From: a virus
Taxonomy: Duplodnaviria > Heunggongvirae > Uroviricota > Caudoviricetes
DNA: 64,000 nucleotides
Virus record (IMG/VR): IMGVR_UViG_3300032220_001761
Coordinates: 1,134 to 65,133 of that record
Strand: one strand, 5' to 3'
Under the pieces are notes generated by a model. It had not been told where the DNA came from. It was given only the letters and a program-made list of their open reading frames with translations, and ran no database searches. Made by a program: the position numbers and the translations under genes. Shown here one piece after another: positions 1-64,000 of this stretch (position 1 is the first letter of the stretch; every line of letters starts with the position of its first letter).

Positions 1-293
1 AAAAAATGGCTAGCAAATAAAACACCTTCCTTTATTATTTCTACCTGCAATCTTAATTCCTCTTCATTCTTTTTAACTATGTAGAACTTTAAACTGTTGC
101 CTGTGAATAAAAAATTAACAGAGTAGATTAATATTCTTTCTTTTTTAAATTTCCAAGGTGAGAATCCTTTAAAAGGTACAAATGAAAATCCATGTATCTT
201 CTTCTTTATAAACGGAAATAAAGGAAGCTTACTTCGTAACGAAGATAAAATATTGCTATGAAAAAATTTCACATATTATTTATCACAAAAAAT

Positions 294-461
294 CTACAAA
301 CTGTATTTATTGCCTCCTAATTTTTCTTCAAGCTGCTCGAGAGTAAATTTTTTAAATGCAACTATAAGAAGTTCCATCTTCATTTCGTCCTCTAATGTTT
401 CAATTCTAAAATCTGGATCTATCTTACTCATAGATTCCGCTAGGTCATATAAATTTTCCAT
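294..461 (-). CDS. small hypothetical protein (about 55 aa). Not in the ORF track (<60 aa). More protein-like than the overlapping + ORF 310..525
   Basis: Reverse-strand ATG at 461 to stop at 294. Charged, mixed composition (MENLYDLAESMSKIDPDF...). The + ORF 310..525 is low-complexity (S/I/F-rich). Confidence 0.3.
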   Translation of the reverse strand: MENLYDLAESMSKIDPDFRIETLEDEMKMELLIVAFKKFTLEQLEEKLGGNKYSL

Positions 462-488
462 CTCTAATTATTTGTTTAATATTTCTAT

Positions 489-833
489 TTGTGTAATAAA
501 ATATTGTTTCGGAACAAAAAAATAAAAAGTGATAAAACATACATGACTTCGATTAAGAATAAAGTAGATCCAGAAAAATTAGAGAACTGGTTCATCGATA
601 ACCGTGAATTAGTTTATACAAGGTCTATAGAGACTGCTAAACAGATGGTAGATAATAAGGATTTAAACGAGGAGATACTTTTCGAATTTTACTGGGGAGA
701 TGCTGTATATTCTAAAATTTTCATGGCAAGAAAAGATATAAAAACAGCCATGGAAAAAGCTCTTAAATATTTCGTTTCGGAAGAGATGTTTGAAAAAGCT
801 CAGGAGATAAAAAATCTCACGGATGCGCTTTGA
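489..833 (+). CDS. hypothetical protein (start more likely the Met at 543)
   Basis: ORF with balanced composition. No recognisable motif. Confidence 0.4.
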   Translation: MCNKILFRNKKIKSDKTYMTSIKNKVDPEKLENWFIDNRELVYTRSIETAKQMVDNKDLNEEILFEFYWGDAVYSKIFMARKDIKTAMEKALKYFVSEEMFEKAQEIKNLTDAL

Positions 834-946
834 AATAGTAGAAAAATCTAAATATTTACGATTTTTTGCCTAAATATTTTTTTTGTTAACATCTTATTGT
901 TAATTTAGCAGTGTAATTAAAAAGATACAAACAAATACTTAAAGAC

Positions 947-1159
947 ATGGGTTCCAAGATTACTCCTACTGAGAAAGGTAAAATCAACGTAAGAGACGAG
1001 AAAGAATTTAAGCTTTGGATAAAGTTTATCGCATCCGTTTACAAAAGCGGCGGTGATATTAACAAGCCAGCTGATATTCTATGGAAAAGTTTCGAAGGGG
1101 AAATTAAAATGGCGGAGACAAGATGTAGGATTAAAAACCAATCCGCAATCTTTTCTTAA
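947..1159 (+). CDS. hypothetical small protein
   Basis: 70-aa ORF, lysine/glutamate-rich, in an intergenic slot. Confidence 0.35.
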   Translation: MGSKITPTEKGKINVRDEKEFKLWIKFIASVYKSGGDINKPADILWKSFEGEIKMAETRCRIKNQSAIFS

Positions 1160-1164
1160 GGCAA

Positions 1165-1737
1165 TTAGTAAAAGAAAATCGAAGATTTTTTAATTCTGGC
1201 TTTTGAAATCCTGTAATTTTTGCGGGAAATTCGATTATCGATTAAAAAATTAAAGAAATCTCCATTTTTAACATTCTTGACCATGGACCTTTCTGTGTTT
1301 TTACATAAAACACTAGTTATTTCCATTTGTCCTTTGTTGATATAATAGTGTGGAAAAAAGCTCTTAAAAAACGTCTTTGTGTTATCTATAGTATAAGCAC
1401 AGCTTTTATTGGTTATGATATTTCTGTTGATCTCGTCCATTAAAAAATCTCTATCTTCTAACACTACCCCAGGTGAAACCCAAAAACAATATGGGGTATA
1501 AACACCAAATTGCGGATTTTTTTCCTTAAAATCCAAACACTCTATTTTTATTGTTCTGTAAAAATCTGAAGACGCCTGGGCTGCATATTGCACGGATCCA
1601 TCGTTAGATCCATAATCTAAAATTATTACGCTAACTCCCCTTATCTTGGTCTGTAATAAAATGCTGTTTAAGGTCGATTTTAGTCCTTCTAGCGTGTTAT
1701 TTGAAGGAATCAATATGGTAACTAGGGTATTAATCAA
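1165..1737 (-). CDS. glycosyltransferase family 2 (GT-A fold)
   Basis: N-terminal VTILIPSNN...L.SIL.QT and DYGSNDGS, matching the GT2 nucleotide-sugar binding region (IPTYN...SL.NQT, DDGSTD). Confidence 0.6.
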   Translation of the reverse strand: MINTLVTILIPSNNTLEGLKSTLNSILLQTKIRGVSVIILDYGSNDGSVQYAAQASSDFYRTIKIECLDFKEKNPQFGVYTPYCFWVSPGVVLEDRDFLMDEINRNIITNKSCAYTIDNTKTFFKSFFPHYYINKGQMEITSVLCKNTERSMVKNVKNGDFFNFLIDNRISRKNYRISKARIKKSSIFFY

Positions 1738-2067: not shown

Positions 2068-2484
2068 TTATGTATTCTCTACTGTGTGTGGGATCAATAC
2101 TCTAATACAAGTTTGCGGAAGTCTGCAATTTTTTAGATAGTTATTGATGTATCCCATAATGTTTGCTGATCCTATAGGATTAGCACTGTGTGTAACAGTC
2201 AGAGGTAATTTTTTACCTGTCGATATGCTTTGATCAACAAGCCATTTTGCACAATCGTATCCGGTTTTTTCAGTAATGTTATCGTAGTCTAGAACATAGT
2301 TCTTAGATACATTACCGAAATATTCTTTTATTGCAGAATCCCCAAGGTCATGATCGAGCGAGATTTTTTCTATATTTTCCATCCCAATTTTGCTGACTGT
2401 TTTTACAAACTCGTGATAGTTTCTACAAATGATCCATCCGCTTTCAATTGGTGTTCGTATATCGTCTAAGTAAATGTTTTCCAT
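2068..2484 (-). CDS. hypothetical protein
   Basis: 138-aa ORF. 4-bp spacing to neighbours in a co-directional block. Confidence 0.45.
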   Translation of the reverse strand: MENIYLDDIRTPIESGWIICRNYHEFVKTVSKIGMENIEKISLDHDLGDSAIKEYFGNVSKNYVLDYDNITEKTGYDCAKWLVDQSISTGKKLPLTVTHSANPIGSANIMGYINNYLKNCRLPQTCIRVLIPHTVENT

Positions 2485-4589: not shown

Positions 4590-5828
4590 TTAATTACTTA
4601 GCGGTGCTTTAATTGTTTCGTGTGATTGATAGTCACTTAGAATAAAATCATTAATAGAACTAGAAAATATCCCATCTCTAACATGAACTGTAGGTAAAGG
4701 GAAAGGCTCTCTTGTTTTCTTAGGTATTTTATACGAATCATAATACTCGCTTAATCCTCCTCCAAAAGGAACCATTTCAGAAACTGCTGTGCTATAAAAA
4801 TCTCCCATAGCAGTCTTTAACATATCATGTCTTTCTTCGTGAGTGTAGTTTCTGCCAATCTGCTCCTTTGCTTGTTCAATATGATTTGAATAAAGATGAA
4901 CATCACCCAAGTTACCAATCAATTCATCAGGAATCATATTAACCTCGTCTGCAATCATCATCAATAACAATCCGTAAGATGCAATGTTAAATGGTAAACC
5001 TAAGAATGTATCTACTGAACGTTGATTCCACATTAGAGAGATTGCTCGTTTAGGAACACCATAAGGTCTAAAAAACTCATCCATAGAAAATTCAACATCG
5101 AATTCTCTCATAGGTAAACCAATTTTAGGTCTATTTTTCTTCATCCAATCCAATCTTTCTTCATTACTCAACTCTCTTGTATAAACTTGAAATCCATAAT
5201 GACAAGGTGGAAGTACCATTTGGTCTAATTCTCCAACATTCCAAGCATTAACCATTAATCGTCTTGAGTCTGGATTTGTTTTAAGGTCGTTGATTAGATT
5301 TTGAATTTGGTCTATTGGTTTATAAACAATCTTTGGCCATTGTAATCTATCATCATTTGGCCATTCCACTAAATCACCAGATTTACACTTTTCTGGTGTA
5401 TTCCAACTTCTCCATTGCTTACCATAAATTGGACCTAATTCACCCCACTTCTTGGCAAACTCATCATCTATTTTGATCTTCTCAATGAATTCTTCTTGTG
5501 ACAATAACTTATCTTTTTCAGTTTCACCAATTACATCTAATGCTTTTTTTTCATAATTCTTATAAGCATCACCATCCCAAATATGACAATTATTATCAAC
5601 AAGGTATTTGATATTAGTATCGCCACGTAAGAACCAAATCAATTCAGTTACAACTGTCTTAAATGGCATCTTTTTGGTTGTAAGGAGTGGGAATCCTTCT
5701 GACATCTTATGACGGATTTGTCTTCCGAATACTGATAGTGTACCAGTCCCTGTTCTGTCTTTCTTTTCTACACCATTATCAAGGATATCTTGAAGGAGTG
5801 CTATGTATGTTTTATCTAGGTTGTTCAT
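4590..5828 (-). CDS. thyA: thymidylate synthase (ThyA) family enzyme with three large insertions (412 aa). Could be a dUMP methylase or a dUMP hydroxymethylase
   Basis: ThyA motifs present: ELGPIYGKQWRSW (dUMP-binding loop), MVLPPCHYGFQ (catalytic Cys), NQRSVDTFLGLPFNIASYGLL with Asn retained in PFNIAS (uracil specificity), and C-terminal HETIKAP. About 100 extra residues inserted relative to 264-320 aa ThyA. Confidence 0.75.
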   Translation of the reverse strand: MNNLDKTYIALLQDILDNGVEKKDRTGTGTLSVFGRQIRHKMSEGFPLLTTKKMPFKTVVTELIWFLRGDTNIKYLVDNNCHIWDGDAYKNYEKKALDVIGETEKDKLLSQEEFIEKIKIDDEFAKKWGELGPIYGKQWRSWNTPEKCKSGDLVEWPNDDRLQWPKIVYKPIDQIQNLINDLKTNPDSRRLMVNAWNVGELDQMVLPPCHYGFQVYTRELSNEERLDWMKKNRPKIGLPMREFDVEFSMDEFFRPYGVPKRAISLMWNQRSVDTFLGLPFNIASYGLLLMMIADEVNMIPDELIGNLGDVHLYSNHIEQAKEQIGRNYTHEERHDMLKTAMGDFYSTAVSEMVPFGGGLSEYYDSYKIPKKTREPFPLPTVHVRDGIFSSSINDFILSDYQSHETIKAPLSN

Positions 5829-9302: not shown

Positions 9303-10298
9303 TTATCTAGGACCAAGGAAGCCTAAATTACCGCCTCTTTTTATTTTAGGAGCCTTTTTCATATCTGTAAGATTTCCTAGAGCTTCTGAAAAATCTTTTC
9401 CCATTACAATAACAGATATGATTAATTCTTTAAGATGAGATAATGACATACCCTCGGTTGATTCTATCCAAACAGGCATATCTACATTACTAAGATCCTC
9501 TTCAGATAGCTTATTTTTTATGTATGCTTCTCTAATTTCTTTAGAAGGCATTTCAACTTGATATCTTCTATCAAATCTTGAAGGTCTGTTAGTTATTCTT
9601 TCTTGTAGTTTTTCCGGATAGTTAGTGGTTGCTATATAAACAACATTTTCGATTTGCTTAACTCCATCAAGGATATTTAAAAGCTTGGTTGTCGAATAAC
9701 GGTCTTCACCAGCAAGAGCATCAATATCCTCAAGAATAACAATTAAAGGTCTTTCTGGCTCGATCTTACGAATGGTTGGAATAAATTCAACGAAAGATTT
9801 AAAATCGTCTTCCTCCTTAATGTTTATTACAATTCCGTTCTCTCTATCGATTAATTTCTTTATACAAAGCTGTATTATCCCTGATTTTCCACACCCAGGT
9901 TCTCCCCATAAAAGTATACCTCTTTTGTGTACGAAGTTGTATTTTCTGTAAACATCTTTTTTGTCCCAAAATAGCTGTATATCGCTAAGGATACTTTGTA
10001 TCTCTGGTGATGGCAATTCGTAAAGTTCATCTACCTTCAATTTTTGTTTAACCATGACATGGGTCTGAAGGTTAGAATTCCATATGATCTCATAGAGACC
10101 AGATGGAACTTTCGGTATCGAAACGTAAGAAGGGGCAAATGTCTCATTTTGAAGTATAGACCATTCAGTTGGAGATTGGATATCTATGTTATCTAATCCT
10201 TCCTGGTCCATTATATAGTCGTCTATAATGTGGTTATTTCTCATATTTTTAATTAAGCGGTTTATACCTGACTGCCTCATCCCTCTCTTATTTTTCAT
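9303..10298 (-). CDS. AAA+ ATPase (classic AAA clade)
   Basis: Walker A GEPGCGKSG, Walker B IVILEDIDA, second region of homology NRPSRFDRR with arginine fingers. Confidence 0.8.
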   Translation of the reverse strand: MKNKRGMRQSGINRLIKNMRNNHIIDDYIMDQEGLDNIDIQSPTEWSILQNETFAPSYVSIPKVPSGLYEIIWNSNLQTHVMVKQKLKVDELYELPSPEIQSILSDIQLFWDKKDVYRKYNFVHKRGILLWGEPGCGKSGIIQLCIKKLIDRENGIVINIKEEDDFKSFVEFIPTIRKIEPERPLIVILEDIDALAGEDRYSTTKLLNILDGVKQIENVVYIATTNYPEKLQERITNRPSRFDRRYQVEMPSKEIREAYIKNKLSEEDLSNVDMPVWIESTEGMSLSHLKELIISVIVMGKDFSEALGNLTDMKKAPKIKRGGNLGFLGPR

Positions 10299-14626: not shown

Positions 14627-14696
14627 ATCAATCTTATTTATTCACCACACAAAGGTTTCTTTTTTAAATCAGGATAAATACAAGAATAAAACATAC

Positions 14697-25222: not shown

Positions 25223-25250
25223 TAGACTACATTTATTTCTATATGTATCT

Positions 25251-25263: not shown

Positions 25264-25298
25264 AAAAGATTTTTTTTATATGTTAGAAGTTTCTATCT

Positions 25299-43929: not shown

Positions 43930-43949
43930 TCTTTATAGATTAAATTGTT

Positions 43950-44372: not shown

Positions 44373-44374
44373 AA

Positions 44375-52627: not shown

Positions 52628-52870
52628 TTACCTATATTCTACGATTTGTATTTCTATCGTATCTCCCTTTTTATATTCCCTGTAAACTGGAAATATTCTA
52701 CCACAAGAATATACTCGCCATCTTTTTCTCATTATCTCGTCATGGACAGAAATCACAGGAACCACTTCGCATGAATCTATTGCACATTTAACTACAGTAA
52801 CATTCTTCTCCATATTGTTACACGAGGAGAGTACTAATAAAATCGATCCTAAAAAAATTACGTTTTTCAT
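52628..52870 (-). CDS. small lipoprotein (spanin candidate)
   Basis: Lipobox LLVLSSC after signal peptide. Adjacent to the endolysin. Confidence 0.45.
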   Translation of the reverse strand: MKNVIFLGSILLVLSSCNNMEKNVTVVKCAIDSCEVVPVISVHDEIMRKRWRVYSCGRIFPVYREYKKGDTIEIQIVEYR

Positions 52871-53812: not shown

Positions 53813-54394
53813 TTATTCAGGTTTTTTATTACTCTCAGAGGCATATTTAACCCCCATGATAGTACCGACTATAGAAAAAGCATTTGTTAAAAGTATACCA
53901 AACATATTACTCCAGGTAGATCCTATTATTTGTGTATCCTTCCCTGTTATCATTGCGATAGAATACATAATAGTAGTAATAACACCAACACCCAATATTA
54001 CTAAAAGAGCAACTTTTACTATTGTCCCTATTAATTCTGTTTGTGTCTTTTTTTGTATAATATCTAAATCGTTTAATGCAATATCTTTTGCCGCTAAAGC
54101 TTCGTTTTTAGAATCTTCCGCTTCTTGAAGTGCGGCTTTAAGCTCTTCGTTTATTCTTAAATTCTCATCTTCTGAAGCTTGTAATTCACGGTTTCTTTCC
54201 TGTACTTGCTTTGTAATTTCAAGTCTTTTCTTTCTGCTTTCTTTATCCTTTTCTATGGAAGTTGAAAGATATGCTTTAAATTCATTATCCCCATCTTCAG
54301 CTTCGATTAGCTTCAATATATTACCCTCTAATCCTATTCTTTTATTTTTCTGGATCTCAAGTAAGCAATCTCGGACTTCTTTACTAACTTTCAT
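53813..54394 (-). CDS. coiled-coil protein with two C-terminal TM helices
   Basis: Long helical N-part, then VKVALLVILGVGVITTIMYSIAMI and FGILLTNAFSIVGTIMGV. Confidence 0.45.
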   Translation of the reverse strand: MKVSKEVRDCLLEIQKNKRIGLEGNILKLIEAEDGDNEFKAYLSTSIEKDKESRKKRLEITKQVQERNRELQASEDENLRINEELKAALQEAEDSKNEALAAKDIALNDLDIIQKKTQTELIGTIVKVALLVILGVGVITTIMYSIAMITGKDTQIIGSTWSNMFGILLTNAFSIVGTIMGVKYASESNKKPE

Positions 54395-54825
54395 TATTTG
54401 TAAATTTTAAAAGGATTAGTTCTATTTTTATACCCAGGAAAATCTTTTCTGAATTCTTCTAATCTAGGTTCAATATCATCAGATTTTATAATCCAAAATT
54501 GAGCTCCTGATTTAACTGCTTTTGCTTGTTCTTCCGGCTCGTTAGACGAAGAAATAATCCCAATAACAACATTATTACCATAATCGAAATTTATTTTTCT
54601 AACCAGTTCTATCCCATCATAAGAAGAACCTATTATATTCAAATCAACAAATACACATTCGGGTTTACCGTTTGAATTTTTTTGCCACCCTTCAAAAAGT
54701 TTAGCAGCCTCATCAGAGCTGTCAAGGCTTTCAAGAGAAAGTGAAATATCAAGAAGACTACAAGCATCTTCAAATACGAGGTGAAATAGACTTTCGTCAT
54801 CCACTAATAAAATAGAATCAATCAT
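54394..54825 (-). CDS. stand-alone response-regulator receiver (REC) domain protein
   Basis: ILLVDDESL, acidic pocket, phospho-acceptor context CVFVDLNIIG, no output domain. Confidence 0.7.
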   Translation of the reverse strand: MIDSILLVDDESLFHLVFEDACSLLDISLSLESLDSSDEAAKLFEGWQKNSNGKPECVFVDLNIIGSSYDGIELVRKINFDYGNNVVIGIISSSNEPEEQAKAVKSGAQFWIIKSDDIEPRLEEFRKDFPGYKNRTNPFKIYK

Positions 54826-56947
54826 TTTTTAGGTTTATTTTTATTTGACTTCCAATATCTGGAAGTTTATCGCAAGAAACACTGAACCCGTGTTCTTCGA
54901 GTATAGCTATACATATGTTTAATCCCAAACCTGTTCCAGACTCTTTTTGCCCTTCTTTACGTGTATATGGTTGTGAAAGTATTTTAAATTCCTCTGAGCT
55001 TAGACCTCTACCATTATCCTCAATGTATAATGTATCATCATTCCTATAGATTTTTACAATCTTATTATTACTATCATTATATTTTAAACCGTTTCTAATT
55101 AAGTTATCTAATGCTGTACAAAAAAGAGCTTCATTTACGCTTAATTCCCCTAGTTCTAATAGATTAACCTGTGGTCTATATGCAGTTGCAGATAAGTAGT
55201 CTTCGAGAATGTCGTTAAGTTTACACTCAGATCTATTAAGAACTACGTCTTTTTTTACAAGATTGGTAAATTCATATACCCCTTTATAAACCTTCTGCGT
55301 ATGTCTAAGTCCTTCCTTAATCATTTTTATAGGGGCTTCAATTTTAAGATCCTTTACTTGGTCATCTGATAATCTTCTATCCAAAGAGCTCAATCCACGA
55401 GGCATATAAGTATTAATCCCACTGTGCATGTCATGTCTAAGAATCTTAGCAGCATGTTCAAGATAGGTATTTTTCTTTTCTATCTCTTTTTGTTGATTAA
55501 AATTTTCAGTAATATCGGTAGCAATTTTCATTATCCGATAAGGTTTTCCGTCATTTCCTATAATAGGATTGTAAGTTGCTTGAAGATAAATTAGTGTACC
55601 ATCTTTTTTCCTTCTTGTGATTTCTCCTCTAAAGAATGTTCCTTCTCTTAGGGATTTCCAAAAATCTTTATATTCATCGCTATCTTTTAATGAATTTTCT
55701 ACAAATAAGCTGTGGTGCTTTCCAACAATTTCATCATGAGAATATCCCAAGGTATCTAAAAAAGCATTATTTGCAAATTTTATATTACCATCTAGATCAA
55801 ATTCAATAACAGCATTCGATCTATTAATGGCGTTCATTCTGTTAGATATTTCAACCTCTTTTCTTTTTAATTCTGTTACGTCTTGTCTTATAGAAGAGAA
55901 TCCAATAAGTTTATCATTATTAAATTTAGCTTTTATAAAAGTGTCAACGTAATATAAACTCCCGTCTTTAGCTTTATTTACACAAACTGAATTCCAGATT
56001 TTTTTATCTTTTATTACAGTTTTGTACATATTAGTCCAAAACTCTTTAGGGTGTGTACCCGAGTTTACTATGTTATGATCCTTTCCAATAACATCTTCTA
56101 ATGTATACCCAGAAACATCGGTAAATCTTTGGTTTACATAAGTTATTTTACCATTTTTGTCTGCAACTGAAATAATAGAAGAAGCATCTAAGAATTTATC
56201 ATTCTCTATCATTTGCTCAGATAAAAAATTAGATTCTTTAACAGAAAATCCAAATGAATATAATGAAGAGATCATTTGTAAATAAGAAATCTCTAGAACT
56301 TTCCATTCTCTTTGTGTTAGATTTTCAATACATATAACACCTATTAAAGATCCCTTATAATATATTGGGATATCAAGCATTGATTTTATACCGAGGGGCC
56401 TAAGATAAGAATCAGTAAAGCATGATGTTGCAATATGAGTTTCCGCATCATTTGCAACGATTATTGGATCATTTTCTAATGCTTCGAAATATTGATAAAA
56501 ATCTTTTTTAAAAATCTCAATCCCATTATAAAATTTATTCTCTCCTCTTACATAAAGTTGATCGCAGATAATAGATTCTTTATTTTCCGAATAAAGCCAT
56601 ACTGAAACCCTATCAGTTTCAGTAACCATTGATATTTCCCTTGTGATTAATTTTGCAGAACCAGATATATCACCAACATAAAAGCATTCACTTCTAGACT
56701 GCCATATAAGGGAGGAATTTAATTCAAATGTGTATTTATTTTCCTTGATCGATTCCTTGCTTTTTTTGATAAAATCTTTCATTATCAGCCAGAAAAGTGG
56801 TACAAATGAAAGGAAGCACAGATACTCTATCCCTCTAGTATTTGGGGTTGACGGTACTATCTCAAATAGTACTGAGGTCTTTACTAAAAAAAACACTAGC
56901 ATAATAGCTAGCGCAAGACCAAATAGAAGATTAGATCTCTTTAGCAT
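54818..56947 (-). CDS. sensor histidine kinase with N-terminal TM segments and PAS-like repeats
   Basis: H-box ILRHDMHSGINTY, N/G boxes NLIRNGLKY, IEDNGRGL, GTGLGLNICIAILEEHG. Repeated PAS-like blocks (GKITYVNQRFTDVSGYTLEDVIGK..; GNIKFANNAFLDTLGYSHDEIVGK..). Confidence 0.8.
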   Translation of the reverse strand: MLKRSNLLFGLALAIMLVFFLVKTSVLFEIVPSTPNTRGIEYLCFLSFVPLFWLIMKDFIKKSKESIKENKYTFELNSSLIWQSRSECFYVGDISGSAKLITREISMVTETDRVSVWLYSENKESIICDQLYVRGENKFYNGIEIFKKDFYQYFEALENDPIIVANDAETHIATSCFTDSYLRPLGIKSMLDIPIYYKGSLIGVICIENLTQREWKVLEISYLQMISSLYSFGFSVKESNFLSEQMIENDKFLDASSIISVADKNGKITYVNQRFTDVSGYTLEDVIGKDHNIVNSGTHPKEFWTNMYKTVIKDKKIWNSVCVNKAKDGSLYYVDTFIKAKFNNDKLIGFSSIRQDVTELKRKEVEISNRMNAINRSNAVIEFDLDGNIKFANNAFLDTLGYSHDEIVGKHHSLFVENSLKDSDEYKDFWKSLREGTFFRGEITRRKKDGTLIYLQATYNPIIGNDGKPYRIMKIATDITENFNQQKEIEKKNTYLEHAAKILRHDMHSGINTYMPRGLSSLDRRLSDDQVKDLKIEAPIKMIKEGLRHTQKVYKGVYEFTNLVKKDVVLNRSECKLNDILEDYLSATAYRPQVNLLELGELSVNEALFCTALDNLIRNGLKYNDSNNKIVKIYRNDDTLYIEDNGRGLSSEEFKILSQPYTRKEGQKESGTGLGLNICIAILEEHGFSVSCDKLPDIGSQIKINLKND

Positions 56948-56988: not shown

Positions 56989-57420
56989 TCAAGTGAAACT
57001 TTTAATTTCTTTAGATAATTCTCTTTCTTTTATTGAATTTCTTTTATCGTAATTCTTTTTACCTTTAGCAAGGGAAACCTTCAATTTAATTTTACCTCTT
57101 TCATTAGAAAATATCAGTGTTGGGACTATCGTAATTCCTTGATCTAATCCTCTTTCCAATTTGTTAAGTTCCTTTCTTTTAAGTAAAAGCTTTCTTACCC
57201 TTAAAGGATCAGGTGAAAAATCTCCCATGGGAGATATGTTTAATCCCTTTATGTAAAGCTCGTTTTTTTCTAAATAACAAAAAGCATCCACCATAGATAC
57301 TTTACCTGCTGCTATCGATTTTACTTCGGATCCAAATAATTGGATGCCAGCTGTGTATTCTTCGATAAAGAAATAATCGAAAGAAGCTTTTCTATTTTTT
57401 ATGTGTATATTCTTAGGCAC
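56989..57420 (-). CDS. smpB: SsrA-binding protein SmpB
   Basis: Near-collinear with bacterial SmpB: NRKASFDYFFIEEYTAGIQLFGSEVKS..AGK, RVRKLLLKRKEL, GKIKLKVSLAKGKKNYDKR and basic C-terminal tail. Confidence 0.85.
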   Translation of the reverse strand: MPKNIHIKNRKASFDYFFIEEYTAGIQLFGSEVKSIAAGKVSMVDAFCYLEKNELYIKGLNISPMGDFSPDPLRVRKLLLKRKELNKLERGLDQGITIVPTLIFSNERGKIKLKVSLAKGKKNYDKRNSIKERELSKEIKSFT

Positions 57421-57778
57421 TTACTGAAAAATAAATTATTTTAGGAAAATCCCCAAATACAAATTTAGTCACATCGCAAAGCCACATATCTAGATTAAAG
57501 TGTGATATTCCCTTATACGAGTCTAATCTATACCAAGCTCCTTCTCCGAGTTCCCATCCCTCAAGTCTACCTAATTCTTTTATTTTCAGATTGTCTGATC
57601 CTTCAAAATACTCATCAGAAAGAACTACATGCACTTCCGCTTCTCCCTCAGCTAGTATATCTAAAAAAGAATCCGCTCCTGCAACCATTTGAAGTTCTGC
57701 TTTAGTACCTTCCCACTCTGGTAGATCTACATACCAATTTCCATTCGTCTCTTTGTAAAATCTAAATCTTCTTGTCAT
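57413..57778 (-). CDS. hypothetical protein
   Basis: 121-aa ORF. Confidence 0.45.
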   Translation of the reverse strand: MTRRFRFYKETNGNWYVDLPEWEGTKAELQMVAGADSFLDILAEGEAEVHVVLSDEYFEGSDNLKIKELGRLEGWELGEGAWYRLDSYKGISHFNLDMWLCDVTKFVFGDFPKIIYFSVSA

Positions 57779-58578
57779 ATTTTTATTTTTAAAGCCTCGT
57801 CATAATCTTCCCAAAGACAATCAATAAAGTAGTGATTAACTCCTTTACACCAATCTGTTTTAATACCTCTTTGAGGTGTATGACCAACAACCTGATTTAT
57901 CCCTTCTAATGGATATTCATTGAAAACCCTAGGTCTTACCCAAACCGGACCAGCCCATAGGTCAAATCCCCCACTCTGTGCATCAACATTAAAAAGAATA
58001 TCAAGTCTCATTTCTAATGCTGTATTAAGAAGATCACAAAGATCTAGTTCTTTTAGAATGTCATAGAATCTGTGGTTTGGATTATAAACTTCTTTTCTTA
58101 ACTCAGTAAGCCATCCACTTGTAACCCCTGCGTGTGTCCATAACCATTGCTGTCCATCATCACCAACCTCATAGTGTGCTAATTTGAAACCTGCTTCTTT
58201 ATCCGTATAGATATCAAGAAGATCATGTTTCATCTCTGGCCTGAATCCGCTACATATTTCATTTTCTATAAAATATTGAACATCATGATTTCCAATAAGA
58301 AGCTCCACTCTATTCGGAACCATTTTTTTAAAGAAAACTATATCTCTTAGATTATTTAAAATAACATCGTTTTTTAGATCATAGCTGTCTGCATAATCAC
58401 CAACGAAAATAATCTTGTCATATTTCATATAGGGATAATCATCCCAAAAAGTATCATCACCAGGAGCACCATTTTCCACTGCAGTCTTCCACAGGTTAAA
58501 TTCATATGGACTTCCATGTGTATGGAACATCCAACGATCTCTTCCGTGTATATCTCCCAGTGTTAATATCATTTTCAT
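57775..58578 (-). CDS. calcineurin-like metallophosphoesterase
   Basis: LGDIHGR, FVGDYAD, IGNHD, VGHTP motifs. Confidence 0.65.
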   Translation of the reverse strand: MKMILTLGDIHGRDRWMFHTHGSPYEFNLWKTAVENGAPGDDTFWDDYPYMKYDKIIFVGDYADSYDLKNDVILNNLRDIVFFKKMVPNRVELLIGNHDVQYFIENEICSGFRPEMKHDLLDIYTDKEAGFKLAHYEVGDDGQQWLWTHAGVTSGWLTELRKEVYNPNHRFYDILKELDLCDLLNTALEMRLDILFNVDAQSGGFDLWAGPVWVRPRVFNEYPLEGINQVVGHTPQRGIKTDWCKGVNHYFIDCLWEDYDEALKIKI

Positions 58579-58615
58579 CTTTCCGTAAAATTAATAGAAA
58601 AATCCAAATAAAAAA

Positions 58616-59089
58616 TTAAATATCGACGTTTAATTTCTTAAATAGATGCTCAGGCATGGATCTTTTAATAATCTGATCCTCCGTTGTTGGCCAGTATCCT
58701 AGAACTTTTAGCATGTTTAGAAGCACTCTTTCATTTGCAGTCTCCACCTTAAAGTTTCCGTGATGGAAGATAGAAGTAACAGTTGCAAGTGCCCAATCCT
58801 TCATAGAATTAGTTGAGTTTTGCTCCCCTTGAACTCTTCCAAGAATACTTATATTCATTAAAGCACTCTTTAGTTTCTCCTTATCGTCACCGATGATTTC
58901 AATGATTTCGTCTACAAGAACATCCATTATTTGTTCGTGCATTAGATCCCCCTGATATCCTCCATGTCGTAATTCAGATTCCAATTGAGCATATCTCAAT
59001 GCGTACTTTAGAGCATCATTATTTTTCATGCTTAATTTTTTTATTGTTTTTATCCCTACACTCTTTACAAAGCTGATAGACCCATCCAT
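58616..59089 (-). CDS. hypothetical protein (start probably the internal Met near 59029)
   Basis: 157-aa ORF. The N-terminal 20 codons overlap the next gene. Confidence 0.4.
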   Translation of the reverse strand: MDGSISFVKSVGIKTIKKLSMKNNDALKYALRYAQLESELRHGGYQGDLMHEQIMDVLVDEIIEIIGDDKEKLKSALMNISILGRVQGEQNSTNSMKDWALATVTSIFHHGNFKVETANERVLLNMLKVLGYWPTTEDQIIKRSMPEHLFKKLNVDI

Positions 59090-59471
59090 AATTTACAGAC
59101 TTAACTGATTGATTGGATCCGCACTTCTCGCATGTATTGTTACATTTTTTTTCGGCCTCCGATATCACGTTCCCTATATCCTGACCAAAAAATCCATAAA
59201 TCCTTAAAGTAGCATACTTATCCTTTATGTCTGTAATTATTTGGCCTTTGGTTAATTTTTCTCTGATCTTATACCAAAACTTACTTTTAACCTTAACAAC
59301 AGAGTTATCAGTGGCCAAATAATGAATTTTTCTTTTCAAAAACATAGGTATCCAAGAAGGCCACATTTCCTTCTCTATTTTAATTATAGCTTCCTCAACT
59401 ATAGGAACCCATCCTTTAGGAACCCCTGGATAAGAGTATCCAATGTGTCTATATTTCTCTGATATCTTCAT
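59019..59471 (-). CDS. hypothetical protein with C-terminal zinc-ribbon-like CxxC...CxxC
   Basis: CEKCGSNQSVKSVNYGWVYQLCKEC. Confidence 0.45.
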   Translation of the reverse strand: MKISEKYRHIGYSYPGVPKGWVPIVEEAIIKIEKEMWPSWIPMFLKRKIHYLATDNSVVKVKSKFWYKIREKLTKGQIITDIKDKYATLRIYGFFGQDIGNVISEAEKKCNNTCEKCGSNQSVKSVNYGWVYQLCKECRDKNNKKIKHEK

Positions 59472-59784
59472 TATAATTGTTTAGATAGATTAGGGATTTG
59501 ATCCACATCAATAAACAGATAGATGAATCTATTACCTTAAGTGGATGGTCAGGAAGTCCTAAGGAAACAAGTATTATGTACATTAAAGCTGATAAACCAA
59601 CTATTCCAAATGCACCTCTCCATATCCACGGAGATAAGGAATTAGAGAACATTCTTATTATAATATAGATAAAAAAAACCAGGTATGGTAATTCTATATA
59701 AATCCTAGGTGGTAGAGAAAATATCTGTGCAATCTCCTTAGCTGAAGCTATTGCAAGAAAAATCGCGTATGCTGTTTTTCCCAT
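59449..59784 (-). CDS. small polytopic membrane protein
   Basis: Three hydrophobic helices. Confidence 0.4.
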   Translation of the reverse strand: MGKTAYAIFLAIASAKEIAQIFSLPPRIYIELPYLVFFIYIIIRMFSNSLSPWIWRGAFGIVGLSALMYIILVSLGLPDHPLKVIDSSICLLMWIKSLIYLNNYNEDIREI

Positions 59785-60242
59785 TATTTCTGTTTAATTC
59801 TTGATTCGTATTTTTTCTTTACTGTCAATCCTATAGGAATAGCAGATCCCTCCTCGTCGATTCTAACAAAGGTTGCTCTAGCTTTAAGACAAACAACTTC
59901 AGCATCGTTTCTGACATTGTATTTTCTCATTTCTATCAGGATAGTTATAGAAGTGTTTCCAATGCTTTCTATTCCGCAATATGTTTTAATCACATTACCG
60001 ACTTTCATTGGGATAAGAAATTCGGAATCCAAACTTCTAGTTACCATCATAGGTGTATCACAGATCTCAGCAGCGAAAAAAGCACTTATCTCATCCACGT
60101 GAGCCAATAATATTCCACCGAAAGCATTATTATGAACCCCAAGATCCTTAGTCATACAAACCCATGTTGATCTCATCACCATACCTCCTTCCTGGAGTGT
60201 CAAGATGTTTATATCGGTTATCTGCTTCATTCTGTCTACCAT
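59784..60242 (-). CDS. acyl-CoA thioesterase, hotdog fold (YciA-like)
   Basis: AFGGILLAHVDEISAFFA...MMVTRSLDSEFLIPMKVGNVI...SITILIEMRKY...AT(F)VRIDEEGSAIPI follows the YciA/4HBT family pattern. Confidence 0.65.
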   Translation of the reverse strand: MVDRMKQITDINILTLQEGGMVMRSTWVCMTKDLGVHNNAFGGILLAHVDEISAFFAAEICDTPMMVTRSLDSEFLIPMKVGNVIKTYCGIESIGNTSITILIEMRKYNVRNDAEVVCLKARATFVRIDEEGSAIPIGLTVKKKYESRIKQK

Positions 60243-60262
60243 GATTAAAATTAATGTGTGAG

Positions 60263-60547
60263 TTATTTATACTTTTTTGATGTTTGAGAAACACTCGAGC
60301 TAAAAGCTCCAACTCCAAGACAAAAACCAAAAGCATACCATCCGCCATTGTTATTAGGAGCGTAAACGGCAACATCGTCCCATATTAGCATACCTATAAA
60401 ATCAAAAGGAGCTATCATACCGTGCCATAAACCTCCCCAGAAACCATATACGTGACCGCTAACGCACTCGTGAACGTCTTGACTATCTGCACATCCGGTA
60501 AGAGATAAAAGCGCAAATACGAGTAAGAAAATAGTGTATTTTTTCAT
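60263..60547 (-). CDS. lipoprotein
   Basis: Start taken at MKKYTIFLLVFALLSLTGC (lipobox LTGC). Gly/Trp-rich mature part. Confidence 0.45.
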   Translation of the reverse strand: MKKYTIFLLVFALLSLTGCADSQDVHECVSGHVYGFWGGLWHGMIAPFDFIGMLIWDDVAVYAPNNNGGWYAFGFCLGVGAFSSSVSQTSKKYK

Positions 60548-60592
60548 TCTTTCCTTTATCATTGTTAGAGCAAAAGAAAGAAATAATTTCAA

Positions 60593-61315
60593 TTAATGTA
60601 GATAATTCTTAAGAATAAATTTATCCCCCTCCCAAATAATATAGCTAGTATTTTCTATCCAGTCACCAGTATTCAAATATCTTATCCCATCAGCCTCTTT
60701 ATCAGACGGTGTATGTATATGACCACATATAACGGTATTGCAATCTCTTTTGATACACTGCCTTATTAACTCAGATTCAAATTGGGTAATAAACTTAATG
60801 GCTTGTTTTACATTATTTTTTAAAAATTTACTAAGACTTGTTTTAATACCTATCTTTTTAGCCCATTGATCTATCCCTATAGCAAAATCGTATCCAACAG
60901 ATCCTAAGATACCAAGCCATCTTAATTTAACTACCCCATCATATAAATCTCCATGAACTATCCAAACATCGCCTTCTATAAATTCATTAACAATCGATAT
61001 ATTTCCAATTGAATGTGGAGCATATTCTCTAAGAAATTCGTCATGATTGCCAGTAATGTATATGACCTCTTTCTTTTTTGATATTTTTAAAATTTTCTTG
61101 ATTACTTTAATGTGGGATTCAGGGAACCAATGATATTTTTTAATTAACCATCCATCTATTATATCGCCAACTAAAATTAGCCTATCGTATTTTTCTTTTG
61201 CTAAAAGCTTTAGTAAATCTTCTGTCCTAGATCCTTTAGATCCTAAGTGGACGTCACTTATTATTAGAGTTCTTTTATTATTTCCAGTACCCGTGATCTG
61301 CTTTAAAATACTCAT
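60593..61315 (-). CDS. LpxH-like metallophosphoesterase (UDP-2,3-diacylglucosamine pyrophosphatase family)
   Basis: LIISDVHLGS, LILVGDIIDGW, ITGNHDEFL, VHGDLYD, CGHIH. 240 aa as in LpxH. Confidence 0.65.
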   Translation of the reverse strand: MSILKQITGTGNNKRTLIISDVHLGSKGSRTEDLLKLLAKEKYDRLILVGDIIDGWLIKKYHWFPESHIKVIKKILKISKKKEVIYITGNHDEFLREYAPHSIGNISIVNEFIEGDVWIVHGDLYDGVVKLRWLGILGSVGYDFAIGIDQWAKKIGIKTSLSKFLKNNVKQAIKFITQFESELIRQCIKRDCNTVICGHIHTPSDKEADGIRYLNTGDWIENTSYIIWEGDKFILKNYLH

Positions 61316-61973
61316 TGTTATTTTTATTTTTCCAAAATCCTATCAGGAGTTTTATCATATAAAAAACACCCTTGTTATGGAATCTTCTAGGGGATGTATA
61401 AATTTTAGAATACAGTATTACGAATTTGGACGGATTAACAAGTTTGCTTAATTTATAATCCTCTGCAACTTTTGCATTAATATCAAACATTCCATATTTT
61501 TTAAAAGCATTAGAATCCCATAATTGAAATCCACCTAAAGCAAATGGACTTTTGTATTTGCTTATTAACTGTAAGATGTAAAAAATAAACATTACGACAG
61601 AATACGGAAAATCTGTATATGTTCTAATGGTAAGTAATTCTTTTCCCGATATCCTATCAATACAATTTTTAATTGTATTTTTATCCTTTAAGATCATATC
61701 AGCATCTAAAAAAAGAACATACGGGGTTCTACAAAAAGAAAATCCATTATTTCTTGCAACTGAGGGTAATCCCCCTTTAGTCACAAATACATCAATATTT
61801 TTTAAATCAGAATTAAGAACTATGTCTATTGTATTATCATCGCTAGAATCGCAGATGATTACCCTCGTACCATTTATACTGTTTTGAGAATCAATTGACT
61901 CCAAAAAATAATAGATACCTCTTTCTTCATTCTTACAAGGAACTACTATAGTCAAAAGATCTTTTATCCCCAT
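61278..61973 (-). CDS. glycosyltransferase family 2
   Basis: LLTIVVPCKNEERGI..FLESIDSQ and VLFLDADM (DxD). Confidence 0.7.
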   Translation of the reverse strand: MGIKDLLTIVVPCKNEERGIYYFLESIDSQNSINGTRVIICDSSDDNTIDIVLNSDLKNIDVFVTKGGLPSVARNNGFSFCRTPYVLFLDADMILKDKNTIKNCIDRISGKELLTIRTYTDFPYSVVMFIFYILQLISKYKSPFALGGFQLWDSNAFKKYGMFDINAKVAEDYKLSKLVNPSKFVILYSKIYTSPRRFHNKGVFYMIKLLIGFWKNKNNNEYFKADHGYWK

Positions 61974-62040
61974 CCATTATATATTTAGATGAGCGCGTAT
62001 TAAGCAGTAAAAAATTCTTTATTAAATTATTAACAAATAA

Positions 62041-63462
62041 TTAGAATCTCTTAAGAACATAAAGTTTGTTACTAGATCTTGTGTATGCTGTGTACTTTAT
62101 TCTATTTCTCTCTATAACATCCAGATTTACGTTTATGTCATCCTCGAGAACGAATGTTGTTACATAGGTGCTTCCTTGAGATTTATGAGCAGTTATTGCA
62201 TAGGCATAACTTACATCTGCATACCTTCTTAAAAAATCATAGTATTTTACCCAGGATTTTTCCTTCCCTTTCTTTTCTATTGCGATCTTCTTCAGATTAT
62301 TTGCAATTCTATCAAAATCAAATTGACTGCTCTCGTGGAGAATATCAATATACATCTTAATATTTTTATCCTCGTCGTTTAGATAGATTACTCCTGTCTC
62401 GTAATATTTTATATGTAAGATCTCGTCATCTAACTTAAACCTGCTTTCCTTTATCTTATAATCCTCTACAGTAAATTCGTCATTAGTATTGAAGATTATC
62501 TCGTTATTTTCAATAATAGGATTATTCGCTATAAGCTTTTCTCCTATCAATATTTTTGATTCCTGTGATTTTTCACCATATATGACCTTCCTTACAAGAT
62601 TATTCATAGTGGCCACTGTTTTATTTCTCCAAGCAATAATCTTAGCGTATTCTGGGTCGCTTTTAAAATCTTCAGAATTGAAATATACATCCAATATGGA
62701 CTGGAAGCTTTCTTTTATGTCAGGAGAACTCAGATTAAGAAATTCTATACCTTCGCCAGATTCTGATAAGATTGATTCCTTCCCTGTATCAATAGTTGGA
62801 TTTTCTAGACTCTCTCTTATTTTTACAGATGTATCAATTATAGGATTTCCTTTCTTCTGTCTCATTATAGTTTTAAGCTCTACAGTCTTAATTCCATACT
62901 GATCTGCAAGTTCGTCTCTAAAAGGAATACAATCCGGTCTTCCGACAGGTGGTATCTGTGCGGGATCTCCCATACAGATTATTTTTATCTTATCCCTATA
63001 CTTGATAATCTCATGAAAAAGATCATCGCTTAGCATGGAAACCTCATCTATAATTAAAAGCTTTGTTGATTCTATAGGAGGTCTAAAATCTCCCTGGTTA
63101 ACAAATTCCTGCTTTCCATCTGAAGTTATCCTTTCAGTTAGACCAAGCATTTTATGTATAGTGTTAAAAGAAACTCGATGGCTTAAAATACCTGTAGATC
63201 TTTTTATAACTCTAACTGATTTATTCGTTGGCCCAGTTACAGCTATTTTATACCAGCTATTATTCGGCTTCATTACTTCAAGGACGTATTTAACCAGCAG
63301 GCTAACACAAAAGGTCTTCCCCGTTCCTGCCCATCCTTTTATGACATAAATGTCGTCACTTTTACCCTGTATAAAATCTCTAAGCTCTTCAAAAGCGTTT
63401 TTTTGATCACTATTTAATACAGAAATATCTACAATATTTTTCTTTTCCTTAACTTCCCCCAT
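62041..63462 (-). CDS. Dda-like SF1B DNA helicase (RecD/Pif1 clan)
   Basis: N-terminal LNSDQKNAFEEL parallels T4 Dda LTEGQKNAFNIV. Walker A GWAGTGKTF, Walker B LIIDEVSML, motif VI AITAHKSQGST. Confidence 0.8.
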   Translation of the reverse strand: MGEVKEKKNIVDISVLNSDQKNAFEELRDFIQGKSDDIYVIKGWAGTGKTFCVSLLVKYVLEVMKPNNSWYKIAVTGPTNKSVRVIKRSTGILSHRVSFNTIHKMLGLTERITSDGKQEFVNQGDFRPPIESTKLLIIDEVSMLSDDLFHEIIKYRDKIKIICMGDPAQIPPVGRPDCIPFRDELADQYGIKTVELKTIMRQKKGNPIIDTSVKIRESLENPTIDTGKESILSESGEGIEFLNLSSPDIKESFQSILDVYFNSEDFKSDPEYAKIIAWRNKTVATMNNLVRKVIYGEKSQESKILIGEKLIANNPIIENNEIIFNTNDEFTVEDYKIKESRFKLDDEILHIKYYETGVIYLNDEDKNIKMYIDILHESSQFDFDRIANNLKKIAIEKKGKEKSWVKYYDFLRRYADVSYAYAITAHKSQGSTYVTTFVLEDDINVNLDVIERNRIKYTAYTRSSNKLYVLKRF

Positions 63463-63512
63463 GTTTTTACGGATTTAAAGTTTACAAATCTAAAAAAAAA
63501 TTCCTCAGTATA

Positions 63513-63545
63513 CAAAAAAAATCCGAGAAAATTCTCTCGGATTAT
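63513..63545 (-). terminator. intrinsic terminator after the 63559..63960 gene
   Basis: TCCGAGA-AAATTC-TCTCGGA hairpin. A8 upstream on the plus strand gives a T8 tract on the minus strand. Confidence 0.55.
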
Positions 63546-63558
63546 TATAGAGGTATTA

Positions 63559-63960
63559 TTATAGAGGGTTTCCCTCAGAATCGAAAATAATATCATTCGA
63601 TTCTATTCTATCCTTTATTTGCTCGTCCTCATATTGATCTTCGATGTCTCTCGTAATTCTTGTGAGAACACTATCCATATGTTGTTTAAACTTCTCGGAA
63701 GCTTTATCTAAATATTCGATTAATCTAGATAATTGGGATTGATCCATTTCATCCTCGTTTTCTATTTCGAACTGTATTCGAGTATATGTTGAATAGTCCT
63801 CGAAATAATAACTAATTTCATCCCAAAAATAAGGAGGAATTCCTAACCATCCTAAGAACATACCATCGTTAGTTACATTCAAAGCTTTTTTACAATGCAA
63901 GAAATAATTCTGATCATCTTTAGAAATATAGCTAATATCATCTCTATCATTTGCAATCAT
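63559..63960 (-). CDS. hypothetical acidic protein
   Basis: 133-aa ORF. Confidence 0.4.
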   Translation of the reverse strand: MIANDRDDISYISKDDQNYFLHCKKALNVTNDGMFLGWLGIPPYFWDEISYYFEDYSTYTRIQFEIENEDEMDQSQLSRLIEYLDKASEKFKQHMDSVLTRITRDIEDQYEDEQIKDRIESNDIIFDSEGNPL

Positions 63961-64000
63961 TGGATTGCCATCAAGGGGATGATTATAATTAGTGCCAAAG

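Follow-up and report, generated by a model that had tools for sequence, protein, structure and literature searches.

A 64-kb stretch of viral DNA as the probable accessory arm of a huge freshwater phage of Bacteroidota

Lakes and guts harbour huge phages of Bacteroidota in abundance, yet almost none of them has been cultured. The stretch considered here, referred to as the window, comprises 64,000 nucleotides of the IMG/VR virus record IMGVR_UViG_3300032220_001761 (positions 1,134 to 65,133; Caudoviricetes). It is taken to be, with a probability of roughly 0.8, a contiguous accessory (host-takeover) arm of an uncultured tailed double-stranded DNA phage of T4-like stock, which is a distant relative of the Lak, PTm1 and LR7565xx phages, is a member of a freshwater lineage whose genomes very probably exceed 200 kb, and has a Bacteroidota host. 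This reading is carried by the gene inventory, by synteny in many relatives, by a protein of the HK97 fold, by a translation-initiation signature of the Bacteroidota type and by the affinity of the SsrA-binding protein SmpB.

Among the described systems, the bS21-encoding huge phages of freshwater Bacteroidetes (Chen et al. 2022) have genomes of 293-331 kb with a guanine-plus-cytosine (GC) content of 31-33.7% (PMC9723584). The lineage of the window resembles them in its occurrence in freshwater lakes, its similar GC content (about 34% in the window), its use of the standard genetic code and its apparent association with Bacteroidetes hosts that do without Shine-Dalgarno sequences, and like them it encodes a thymidylate synthase and many glycosyltransferases of the polysaccharide or lipopolysaccharide type and no integrase. 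ClpP, which is highlighted in the same paper, is found on a 345-kb contig next to a distant relative of the window's SmpB, which there also adjoins a tRNA_bind protein. The bS21 gene that defines these phages lies inside a block of TerL, capsid, protease and portal genes that the window does not contain; six IMG sample numbers of contigs with relatives of the window's Dda-like helicase gave no match in the supplementary tables of that paper.

The moraphages (Perez-Hernandez et al. 2025), which are mostly from freshwater, have genomes of 200-307 kb and predicted hosts among the Bacteroidota (Flavobacteriia); they combine a T4-type core with a sigma factor of their own, several core glycosyltransferases and variable genomic islands, and they stand nearer to Lak than to T4 (PMC12619734). 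Only one of their 26 core VOGs, the sigma factor, falls inside the window, the core markers gp6, gp13, gp19, gp25, sheath, TerL, Lys-tRNA ligase, ClpA, PhoH and DnaK/DnaJ lying outside it, and the paper makes no mention of SmpB, a histidine kinase, subtilisin or nicotinamide. The window's phage, compared by description with the bS21 phages and the moraphages, may or may not belong to either of them.

The best matches to the window proteins among GenBank phages come from the huge phages LR756500-LR756508 (Al-Shayeb et al. 2020) and from Lak, namely LR756500 for the capsid-like protein (28%), LR756500 (462 kb, 36%) and also Lak for the sigma factor, and LR756508 for the Dda-like helicase (30%). 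These phages differ from the window in that identities stay at 25-36%, no nucleotide similarity is seen and a homologue of the window's subtilisin-family (S8) protease is absent, and the Lak phages recode a stop codon, whereas the window reads cleanly in code 11. The jumbo myovirus PTm1 (Shirahamavirus, 224.7 kb), which has been cultured and infects the flavobacterium Tenacibaculum, has a Bacteroidota host and T4-type head genes, and its capsid and scaffold/protease proteins are homologous to the gp23-family and gp21-like proteins of the window. In PTm1, however, these proteins are long (616 and 564 amino acids, aa), their genes adjoin each other and the portal gene, and the protease has its catalytic His, whereas the window copies are short (308 and 137 aa), lie 30 kb apart amid metabolic genes and outside any head module, and the gp21-like one has Phe at the His position. 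Comparable huge freshwater phages of Bacteroidota are already published, and the window adds a member rather than a kind.

In the window, 96 open reading frames (ORFs) of at least 60 aa are arranged in long co-directional blocks with 15 same-strand overlaps of 4 bp and cover 98% of the sequence, much as an earlier reading made from the letters alone (the sequence-only reading) had described with its about 100 densely packed genes. The GC content varies between 0.30 and 0.38, no tRNA and no Rfam family was found in the 64 kb, and a recoding of stop codons was rejected in view of the 98% coding under code 11. All ORFs were scanned against Pfam after being joined into concatenates with their coordinates tracked, PHROGs served for those left unassigned and NCBIfam for key ORFs; such concatenated queries can miss weak domains, as happened with the stand-alone receiver in the Pfam scan, and about half of the ORFs lack a family assignment. 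Curated equivalog cut-offs were exceeded by SmpB, Pth2, MgsA, ThyA, the DRB0094-type RNA ligase and the NAMPT-type enzyme, and confirmation at the family level was obtained for the Dda-like helicase, T5orf172, sigma-70, YqeY, the CCA-type nucleotidyltransferase, the Band 7 protein, the S8 protease, the GAF-PAS-PAS histidine kinase with a stand-alone receiver, the ABC ATPase with its permease, Endonuclease_NS and the GH19/PG_binding endolysin.

The phage genes named in the sequence-only reading (Dda helicase, Rnl ligase, ThyA, T5orf172, endolysin and sigma factor) were all recovered by profiles from Pfam, NCBIfam or PHROGs, and so were its two-component system (kinase and receiver domains), flotillin, MgsA, secreted protease and secreted nuclease. 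Its translation genes SmpB, PTH2, CCA enzyme and YqeY are likewise present, the CCA enzyme staying below the equivalog cut-offs. Other names hold in part: from its endolysin/spanin set the GH19 and PG_binding endolysin stands, with two or three lysins in the window altogether, and the spanin is a candidate 80-aa lipoprotein; from its ABC importer the ATPase and the permease stand, and the substrate-binding assignment tried for the OmpA-fused neighbour, whose N-terminal 460 aa match no family, found no support. The protein called LpxH-like turned out to be a generic metallophosphoesterase. The gp23-family protein, the gp21-like protein and a cluster for NAD and ADP-ribose metabolism (NAMPT, PRPP-synthetase-like, NADAR and macro-domain proteins) had gone unnoticed.

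The viral nature of the window is supported by its gp23-family HK97-fold protein, its gp21-like protein and its lysins, and also by its relatives. Its Dda-like helicase is 64-76% identical to seven IMG/VR relatives and shares 27-30% identity with annotated Dda-like helicases of phages, and all close relatives are IMG/VR viral contigs; among 50,697 deposited phage records, protein identities do not exceed 36%, and a megablast search with 24 kb of the window gave no match. The closest relative, IMGVR_UViG_3300008267_000005 (174,942 bp), shares the gene order of the window at its two ends, with Dda-SmpB-kinase-receiver-endolysin-VWA-MgsA-GT17 for the right end and Rnl-AAA-ThyA-cREC-metallophosphoesterase for the left. 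On this contig, a 1221-aa tail-spike/virion protein (PHROG E < 1e-51) is encoded 2 kb past the point corresponding to the right end of the window, and past the left end come two collagen-like tail-fibre proteins (1643 and 835 aa) together with a virion protein of 231 aa, with E reaching 7e-92. Tail genes were seen in the relatives only (1221, 1643 and 835 aa, PHROG E 1e-47 to 7e-92). The flanks of the 175-kb and 248-kb IMG/VR relatives encode tail fibres, a sigma factor, glycosyltransferases and an RNA-binding protein. The sequence-only reading had named flanks with core cellular genes and without virion genes as a refutation of its phage reading; in the relatives, tail genes flank the syntenic region, and the Pfam and PHROG annotation available for the 10-20 kb flanks that were read contains no ribosomal, rRNA or other core genes.

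The reading of the window as the accessory arm of a huge phage of Bacteroidota has to be weighed against points that speak against it in regard to size, host, virion genes and gene functions. As to size, an exact 60-mer of the window had no match in IMG/VR or in JGI metagenomes, and the contigs that match the same phage exactly measure 6-58 kb, the longest being 57.8 kb, so that a genome of more than 200 kb is an extrapolation from relatives, which make it likely. Homologues of the Dda-like helicase (64-76% identity) are found on contigs of 175, 248, 270 and 319 kb, others being on contigs of 127-154 kb; homologues of SmpB (73-76% identity) are found on contigs of 239, 264, 273, 316 and 321 kb, whose gene order, so far as it could be read, is unchanged; and one ENA contig of 320,792 bp carries homologues of both SmpB (76% identity) and the S8 protease (74%). 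The lineage-wide SmpB clade has dozens of variants, located on contigs as long as 403 kb. Since metagenomic contigs are usually fragments, these sizes represent lower bounds.

A phage that is large rather than huge, with a complete genome of about 150-200 kb and so under the jumbo limit, would agree with the 175 kb of the closest IMG/VR relative and the 127-154 kb of others, with the region equivalent to the window spanning only about 39 kb in the 175-kb relative, and with the 190,674 bp of the contig that encodes a sequence from the 90%-identity cluster of the S8 protease, the longest contig for any sequence sharing 90% identity or more with a protein of the window. However, the SmpB variant of the 175-kb contig is also present on contigs of 239 and 316 kb, and the 248-, 270- and 319-kb contigs with Dda relatives again set a minimum only, and a genome of this smaller size is considered unlikely.

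A Bacteroidota host for the huge phage is supported by evidence that the sequence-only reading, which had proposed the same host and a very large, gene-rich phage, for the most part did not use. A Shine-Dalgarno core is present 5' of 9.6% of the window genes compared to 11% of random control positions, and the 15 bases before the start codons are A-rich and G-poor. Bacteroidetes ribosomes dispense with Shine-Dalgarno pairing, and the lack of enrichment together with A-rich leaders is the pattern known from Bacteroidota (PMC9723584), which argues for such a host. In a scan of 185,579 species genomes for SmpB, Bacteroidota accounted for 74 of the 80 best matches (44-54% identity), including all of the top 44, the remaining six being metagenome-assembled genomes of Firmicutes or Proteobacteria; the search patterns were derived from an alignment with Bacteroidota-like sequences, which counts against the reading as a possible bias. 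The phage SmpB sequences form a clade of their own (55-100% identity), with a Cytophagales bacterium as the first named cellular match. For the capsid-like and sigma proteins, the Lak phages of Prevotella, the Tenacibaculum phage PTm1 and LR7565xx are among the closest deposited phages, capsid-like matches being found in cyanophages, pelagiphages and rhizobiophages as well. The window contains no excess of TAnnTTTG, the -7 promoter consensus of Bacteroidota (70 sites vs about 86 expected).

The sorting signal of the type IX secretion system (T9SS), from which the sequence-only reading had deduced the host, is suggestive only. For the last 88 aa of the S8 protease, TIGR04183 is the top NCBIfam match and stays below threshold (14.5 bits vs a cut-off of 23, E 0.026), and Pfam finds no sorting domain in this C-terminus, PF18962 being present in none of 120 homologues. 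An AlphaFold2 (AF2) model of the last 100 aa (predicted local distance difference test, pLDDT, 77.5) has as its highest-probability Foldseek matches the type-A C-terminal domains of Flavobacterium johnsoniae RemZ and RemA in T9SS translocon structures (8gl8_D and 8gl6_D; probabilities 0.94 and 0.90, root-mean-square deviation 2.6-3.3 Å), yet with E of 0.7-0.8. The sequence and fold signals are thus two weak indications that agree with each other and suggest, without proving, a sorting domain. Along with this sub-threshold domain, the six SmpB matches outside Bacteroidota and the capsid-like matches in phages of other hosts could be read in favour of a huge phage from another lineage with weak Shine-Dalgarno usage; set against the top 44 SmpB matches, the initiation pattern, the sigma and capsid-like affinities to Lak and PTm1 and the T9SS domains as best fold matches, a host outside Bacteroidota appears very improbable.

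As to the virion, both head-gene homologues of the window look like accessory paralogues and are a weaker proof of a virion than first appears. A profile of 12 homologues of the 308-aa protein aligns with residues 248-451 of T4 gp23 (E 3e-10), and its AF2 model (pLDDT 64) has phage P1 and T4 gp23/gp24 capsids as top Foldseek matches (E 6e-12 to 1e-8, template-modelling score 0.46-0.61). It is accordingly a capsid-type protein of the HK97 fold and may be a paralogue of the principal capsid protein; compact and fast-evolving, it is probably not that protein itself. In the loci examined, its gene is never next to a portal or terminase gene and always lies between a nucleoside-deoxyribosyltransferase-like gene and a GT17 glycosyltransferase gene, a remote homologue being placed amid replication genes. 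With alignment-derived patterns it was not found on the 175-kb relative, which fits a patchy distribution and is no proof of absence. The gp21-like protein reads GQMGFP where the PTm1 protease has GEMEHP, so that, in an alignment with T4 gp21 (5JBL) and PTm1, Phe takes the position of the catalytic His, which is kept in PTm1 and in one homologue (L014). The crystallised T4 gp21 has Ala there, taken as an inactivating substitution of His85, and the window protein is probably an inactive accessory paralogue. Its gene is absent from four syntenic relatives (L109, L112, L113 and L114), and no close IMG/VR relative was found.

The gp23-like gene and the neighbouring glycosyl- and methyltransferase genes form a hypervariable cassette at 33417-38631 (+), as observed in comparison with the relatives L129, L131, L132, L135 and L010. 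Compared to L129, the flanking genes are 90-95% identical, the gp23-like gene 63% and the GT17 gene 52%, and nucleotide identity drops from 0.87-0.94 to 0.68-0.72 exactly at 33.4 kb; in L131, L132 and L135, the identity to the window is 50-90% for the flanking genes and 31-35% for the gp23-like gene. The glycosyl-/methyltransferase island itself (34352-38631 (+), with a match to phrog_21658) shows only 31-58% identity in relatives whose flanks are conserved. An exhaustive profile search for the gp23-like family yielded 967 clusters at 50% identity in public data, of which the best 100 are mostly 280-330 aa long, the canonical capsid proteins of 440-620 aa appearing only lower in the ranking, and no description of this compact family as distinct from the capsid protein proper was found in the literature. 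A tentative proposal is that 33.4-38.6 kb is a diversity hotspot under diversifying selection and cassette exchange, and that the gp23-like protein could be an accessory subunit of the capsid surface (vertex or decoration), glycosylated by the enzymes encoded next to it, or a decoy for capsid-sensing immunity rather than a shell former.

It has to be noted that neither the window nor some 90 kb of the relatives' flanks showed a terminase, portal, sheath or canonical capsid gene of about 600 aa, which likewise speaks against the reading; the principal virion genes are presumably located elsewhere in the genome. Least probable of all is that the window comes from a plasmid-like element, a chromosomal island or a prophage remnant of a Bacteroidota bacterium with accumulated phage genes: the lack of terminase, portal and sheath genes, the degenerate or accessory look of the capsid-like and protease-like genes, the many cellular-type genes and the similar translation gene sets of some large putative plasmids (Al-Shayeb et al., PMC7162821) are set against chromosomal SmpB matches that stay at or below 54% identity, compared to 55-100% within the phage clade, which argues that the element is not resident in sequenced chromosomes, against the absence from the window of any detectable ribosomal protein or further core gene of cells and of genes for an integrase, plasmid replication or partition, and against the tail-fibre genes that flank the syntenic region in relatives, the lysis genes and the viral cataloguing of these relatives. 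A giant eukaryotic virus was rejected, the genes being of bacterial type and HK97 and T4-like genes being present.

The last of the points to be weighed is that all functional roles, counter-defence and kinase timing included, are inferred from sequence. In the mechanism proposed for the huge Bacteroidota phage, its sigma factor would redirect the host RNA polymerase, possibly via a promoter-like motif consisting of a T-tract followed by TCTAT, and the cell would be kept productive against abortive-infection damage through three toolkits. The first would serve tRNA and ribosome rescue: RNA ligase, RlaP, cREC, CCA-type nucleotidyltransferase, Pth2, SmpB and YqeY would re-seal and re-tail cleaved tRNAs, recycle peptidyl-tRNA and free stalled ribosomes together with host tmRNA. 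The second, with NAMPT, the PRPP-synthetase-like protein, NADAR and the macro domain, would resupply NAD+ and remove ADP-ribose marks. The third, with the glycosyl- and methyltransferases, the ABC transporter and its OmpA-anchored partner, flotillin and the secreted protease and nuclease, would provide for envelope remodelling, uptake and secretion. A host-state signal is probably passed to the takeover programme by the sensor kinase and its receiver, and the GH19 endolysin cassette would end the cycle.

In regard to the first toolkit, SmpB/tmRNA and sigma-70 have been reported in huge phages (PMC7162821), and cREC has been tied to NAD and RNA-repair systems (PMC7824862); it is a divergent receiver domain with links to cyclic-phosphate and NAD-ADPr systems. 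In a distant relative (L105 1082-10435, Logan SRR8164854_1320), the RNA ligase, the CCA-type enzyme, a Pth2-like ORF and SmpB are encoded within 9 kb, a clustering that suggests one toolkit. No tmRNA was found in the window (ARAGORN, Rfam) or in the loci of 10 relatives (ARAGORN; L002-L012), which implies that the phage SmpB would need host tmRNA unless a phage copy is present elsewhere in the genome. Past the left end of the window, L109 14536-16275 (+), L112 and L113 encode an RNA-binding protein of about 550-580 aa (phrog_850, E 2e-45), which fits the RNA-repair theme, and at this place the ENA contig of the identical phage encodes a protein of more than 609 aa. In regard to the second toolkit, NAMPT has been found in jumbo phages (PMC11662467), and the NAD+/ADP-ribose cluster at 26231-30993 (+), which contains a match to phrog_335 (E 5e-43), is syntenic in L009, L010 and L129. 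Of the KVP40-type NAD+ salvage route (NAMPT plus NMN adenylyltransferase), NAMPT is present, and no NMN adenylyltransferase was detected in the window, where Pfam and PHROGs contained no match to the NMNAT, NadD or NadR families.

The kinase-receiver pair adjoins SmpB and is syntenic in the 175-kb relative, with identities of 63% and 83%. The kinase contains GAF, two PAS and HATPase_c domains; a candidate H-box (RHD) and the acidic residues of the receiver can be read from the sequence, and the pair has the domain composition of a two-component system with predicted phosphotransfer. Relatives (L018, L019 and L016) carry a second HATPase_c protein between kinase and receiver. None of the 50,697 phage records covers at least 80% of the length of the kinase, and no paper on histidine kinases encoded by phages turned up in phrase searches of the literature. 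The motif TTTTTAT-N5-13-TCTA[TA] occurs 10 times in the window compared to 2.9 ± 1.6 expected, with six sites located 26-50 nt 5' of minus-strand starts; it is 2.6-fold enriched in loci of the lineage and not in chromosomal loci of Bacteroidota, and it may represent a phage promoter.

Table 1. Features of the 64,000-nt window, with coordinates, strand and supporting evidence
Feature	Coordinates	Strand	Evidence
cREC_REC, divergent receiver domain	2068-2484	-	PF20274 E 2.4e-21; 59-73% identical in relatives
gp21-like prohead-protease homologue, 137 aa	2893-3306	-	phrog_207 E 7.7e-23; Pfam S77 23.5 bits vs cut-off 27
ThyA (thymidylate synthase) with insertions	4590-5828	-	PF00303 E 4e-90; TIGR03284 314 bits vs cut-off 108
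Conserved partner of AAA ATPase, 354 aa	8213-9277	-	syntenic in relatives
AAA ATPase	9303-10298	-	PF00004 E 2e-15; syntenic in relatives
ATP-dependent RNA ligase (PHA02142 OB domain + RNA_ligase; DRB0094 type)	10288-11397	-	PF21189 E 7e-37; PF09414 E 3e-22; TIGR02306 202 bits vs cut-off 151
Sigma-70 family factor, 290 aa, regions 1.2, 2, 3, 4	12422-13294	+	Pfam; RpoS/RpoD-type NCBIfam E 1e-45, all below equivalog cut-offs
Endolysin-like protein (second lysin)	14604-15551	+	phrog_181 E 2.6e-25
Secreted subtilisin-family (S8) protease, signal peptide, possible T9SS type-A C-terminal domain	15678-17945	+	PF00082 E 1e-30
Secreted non-specific DNA/RNA endonuclease (Endonuclease_NS)	18738-19328	-	PF01223 E 7e-18
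RlaP nucleotidyltransferase (RNA-repair pathway)	20259-21449	-	PF10127 E 5e-17
Pth2 peptidyl-tRNA hydrolase	21449-21856	-	PF01981 E 6e-31; TIGR00283 99.6 bits vs cut-off 82
T5orf172/MUG113 (GIY-YIG-like) protein	23740-24072	+	PF13455 E 1.4e-14; PF10544 E 2e-12
PRPP-synthetase-like protein	26231-27127	+	Pfam; TIGR01251 87 bits, below cut-off 113
Macro-domain/phosphatase protein	27495-28019	+	Pfam
YqeY	28016-28471	+	Pfam
NADAR	28864-29418	+	Pfam
NAMPT-type phosphoribosyltransferase	29431-30993	+	Pfam; NF006629 419 bits vs cut-off 405
SPFH/Band 7 (flotillin-like) membrane protein	31076-32935	+	PF01145 E 3e-25
Nucleoside 2-deoxyribosyltransferase-like protein	32939-33415	+	PF15891 E 8e-36
gp23-family HK97-fold protein, 308 aa	33417-34343	+	PF07068 E 6.8e-17; phrog_138 E 1e-13
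HtrL_YibB + FkbM methyltransferase	34352-35845	+	Pfam
Methyltransferases	35836-36420, 36427-37008	+	Pfam
GT17-like glycosyltransferase	37027-38631	+	Pfam
MgsA (methylglyoxal synthase)	39176-39574	+	TIGR00160 149.2 bits vs cut-off 146.9; NF003559 159 bits vs cut-off 84
Class II tRNA nucleotidyltransferase (CCA-adding or poly(A)-polymerase head domain), 245 aa	41211-41948	-	PF01743 E 6.5e-21; CCA families E 1e-31, below cut-offs
Envelope-associated block: VWA protein, 420-aa membrane protein (phrog_2087), 140-aa protein, 186-aa protein (phrog_1383, 'virion structural')	42011-44935	-	Pfam, PHROGs; conserved in L104, L129
ABC transporter ATPase	45857-46645	-	PF00005 E 9e-26
BPD-type permease	46642-47454	-	PF00528 E 3e-8
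Membrane-anchored protein, 591 aa, C-terminal OmpA peptidoglycan-binding domain	47511-49286	-	PF00691 E 5e-21
phrog_3000/endolysin-like protein	51153-51752	-	PHROGs
GH19 + PG_binding_1 endolysin	51758-52585	-	Pfam; 74-83% identical in relatives
Lipoprotein, 80 aa, spanin candidate	52628-52870	-	lipobox LSSC read from sequence; adjoins endolysin; putative spanin role
Stand-alone receiver	54394-54825	-	PF00072 (Response_reg) precomputed for identical product; NCBIfam receiver matches E 1e-6
GAF-PAS-PAS-HATPase sensor kinase	54818-56947	-	Pfam
SmpB (SsrA-binding protein)	56989-57420	-	TIGR00086 154.5 bits vs cut-off 119
DUF6717 protein	within block 57413-61973	-	Pfam
Metallophosphoesterase	57775-58578	-	Pfam
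4HBT thioesterase	59784-60242	-	Pfam
Metallophosphoesterase ('LpxH-like' of the sequence-only reading)	60593-61315	-	Pfam; LpxH equivalog 38.9 bits vs cut-off 134
GT2 glycosyltransferase	61278-61973	-	Pfam
Dda-like SF1B DNA helicase	62041-63462	-	AAA_30 E 2e-22, also PIF1, UvrD_C_2
TTTTTAT-N5-13-TCTA[TA] sites	58614, 53810, 51052, 41996, 21890, 11731	-	
TTTTTAT-N5-13-TCTA[TA] site	25273	+	

Some further observations concern single genes and more distant phages. The gene call at 25223-25724 is ambiguous: the ORF 25424-25642 (-) was kept, and the alternative ORF 25299-25724 (+, TTG start), which has the promoter-like motif of position 25273 located 26 nt 5' of it, may be the real gene. In L126 17808-19037 (-) (IMGVR_UViG_3300008262_006132), a phage that shares a protein of the tail module, a 409-aa protein matches phrog_1211 ('2-aminooxy adenylosuccinate synthetase', PurZ/PurA-like) with E 7e-102, a possible hint of modified-base chemistry. 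The S8 protease has more than 120 full-length homologues, of which those with 67-73% identity and a 135-aa neighbour are found on two independent phage-like assemblies, L140 (JGI Ga0621872_00057, 642,751 bp) and L141 (ENA KRAE22-1_SAMEA7614206 scaffold_4, 631,525 bp). The genes are surrounded there by dense small ORFs, CHU_C (PF13585), PKD_6 and NT5C, with NAD_synthase or Phage_lysozyme on one contig each, and these assemblies, which share only about four genes with the window, are candidate freshwater megaphages.

The classification of the window is confirmatory and unsurprising, the oddities being the cassette of the gp23-like and glycosyltransferase genes and the kinase pair. The lineage is widespread in public metagenomes, as seen from dozens of variants of SmpB, the Dda-like helicase and the protease, and the S8 protease and the SmpB clade can be used as markers for finding it. 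A single arm of the genome would unite tRNA repair and ribosome rescue, NAD+ resupply and the removal of ADP-ribose marks, all of which are discussed as counter-defence, and the conserved phage-borne sensor kinase with its receiver would represent a regulatory device rarely reported in phages. Each well-delimited lineage of this type enlarges the catalogue of the ways in which large phages take over the cell.

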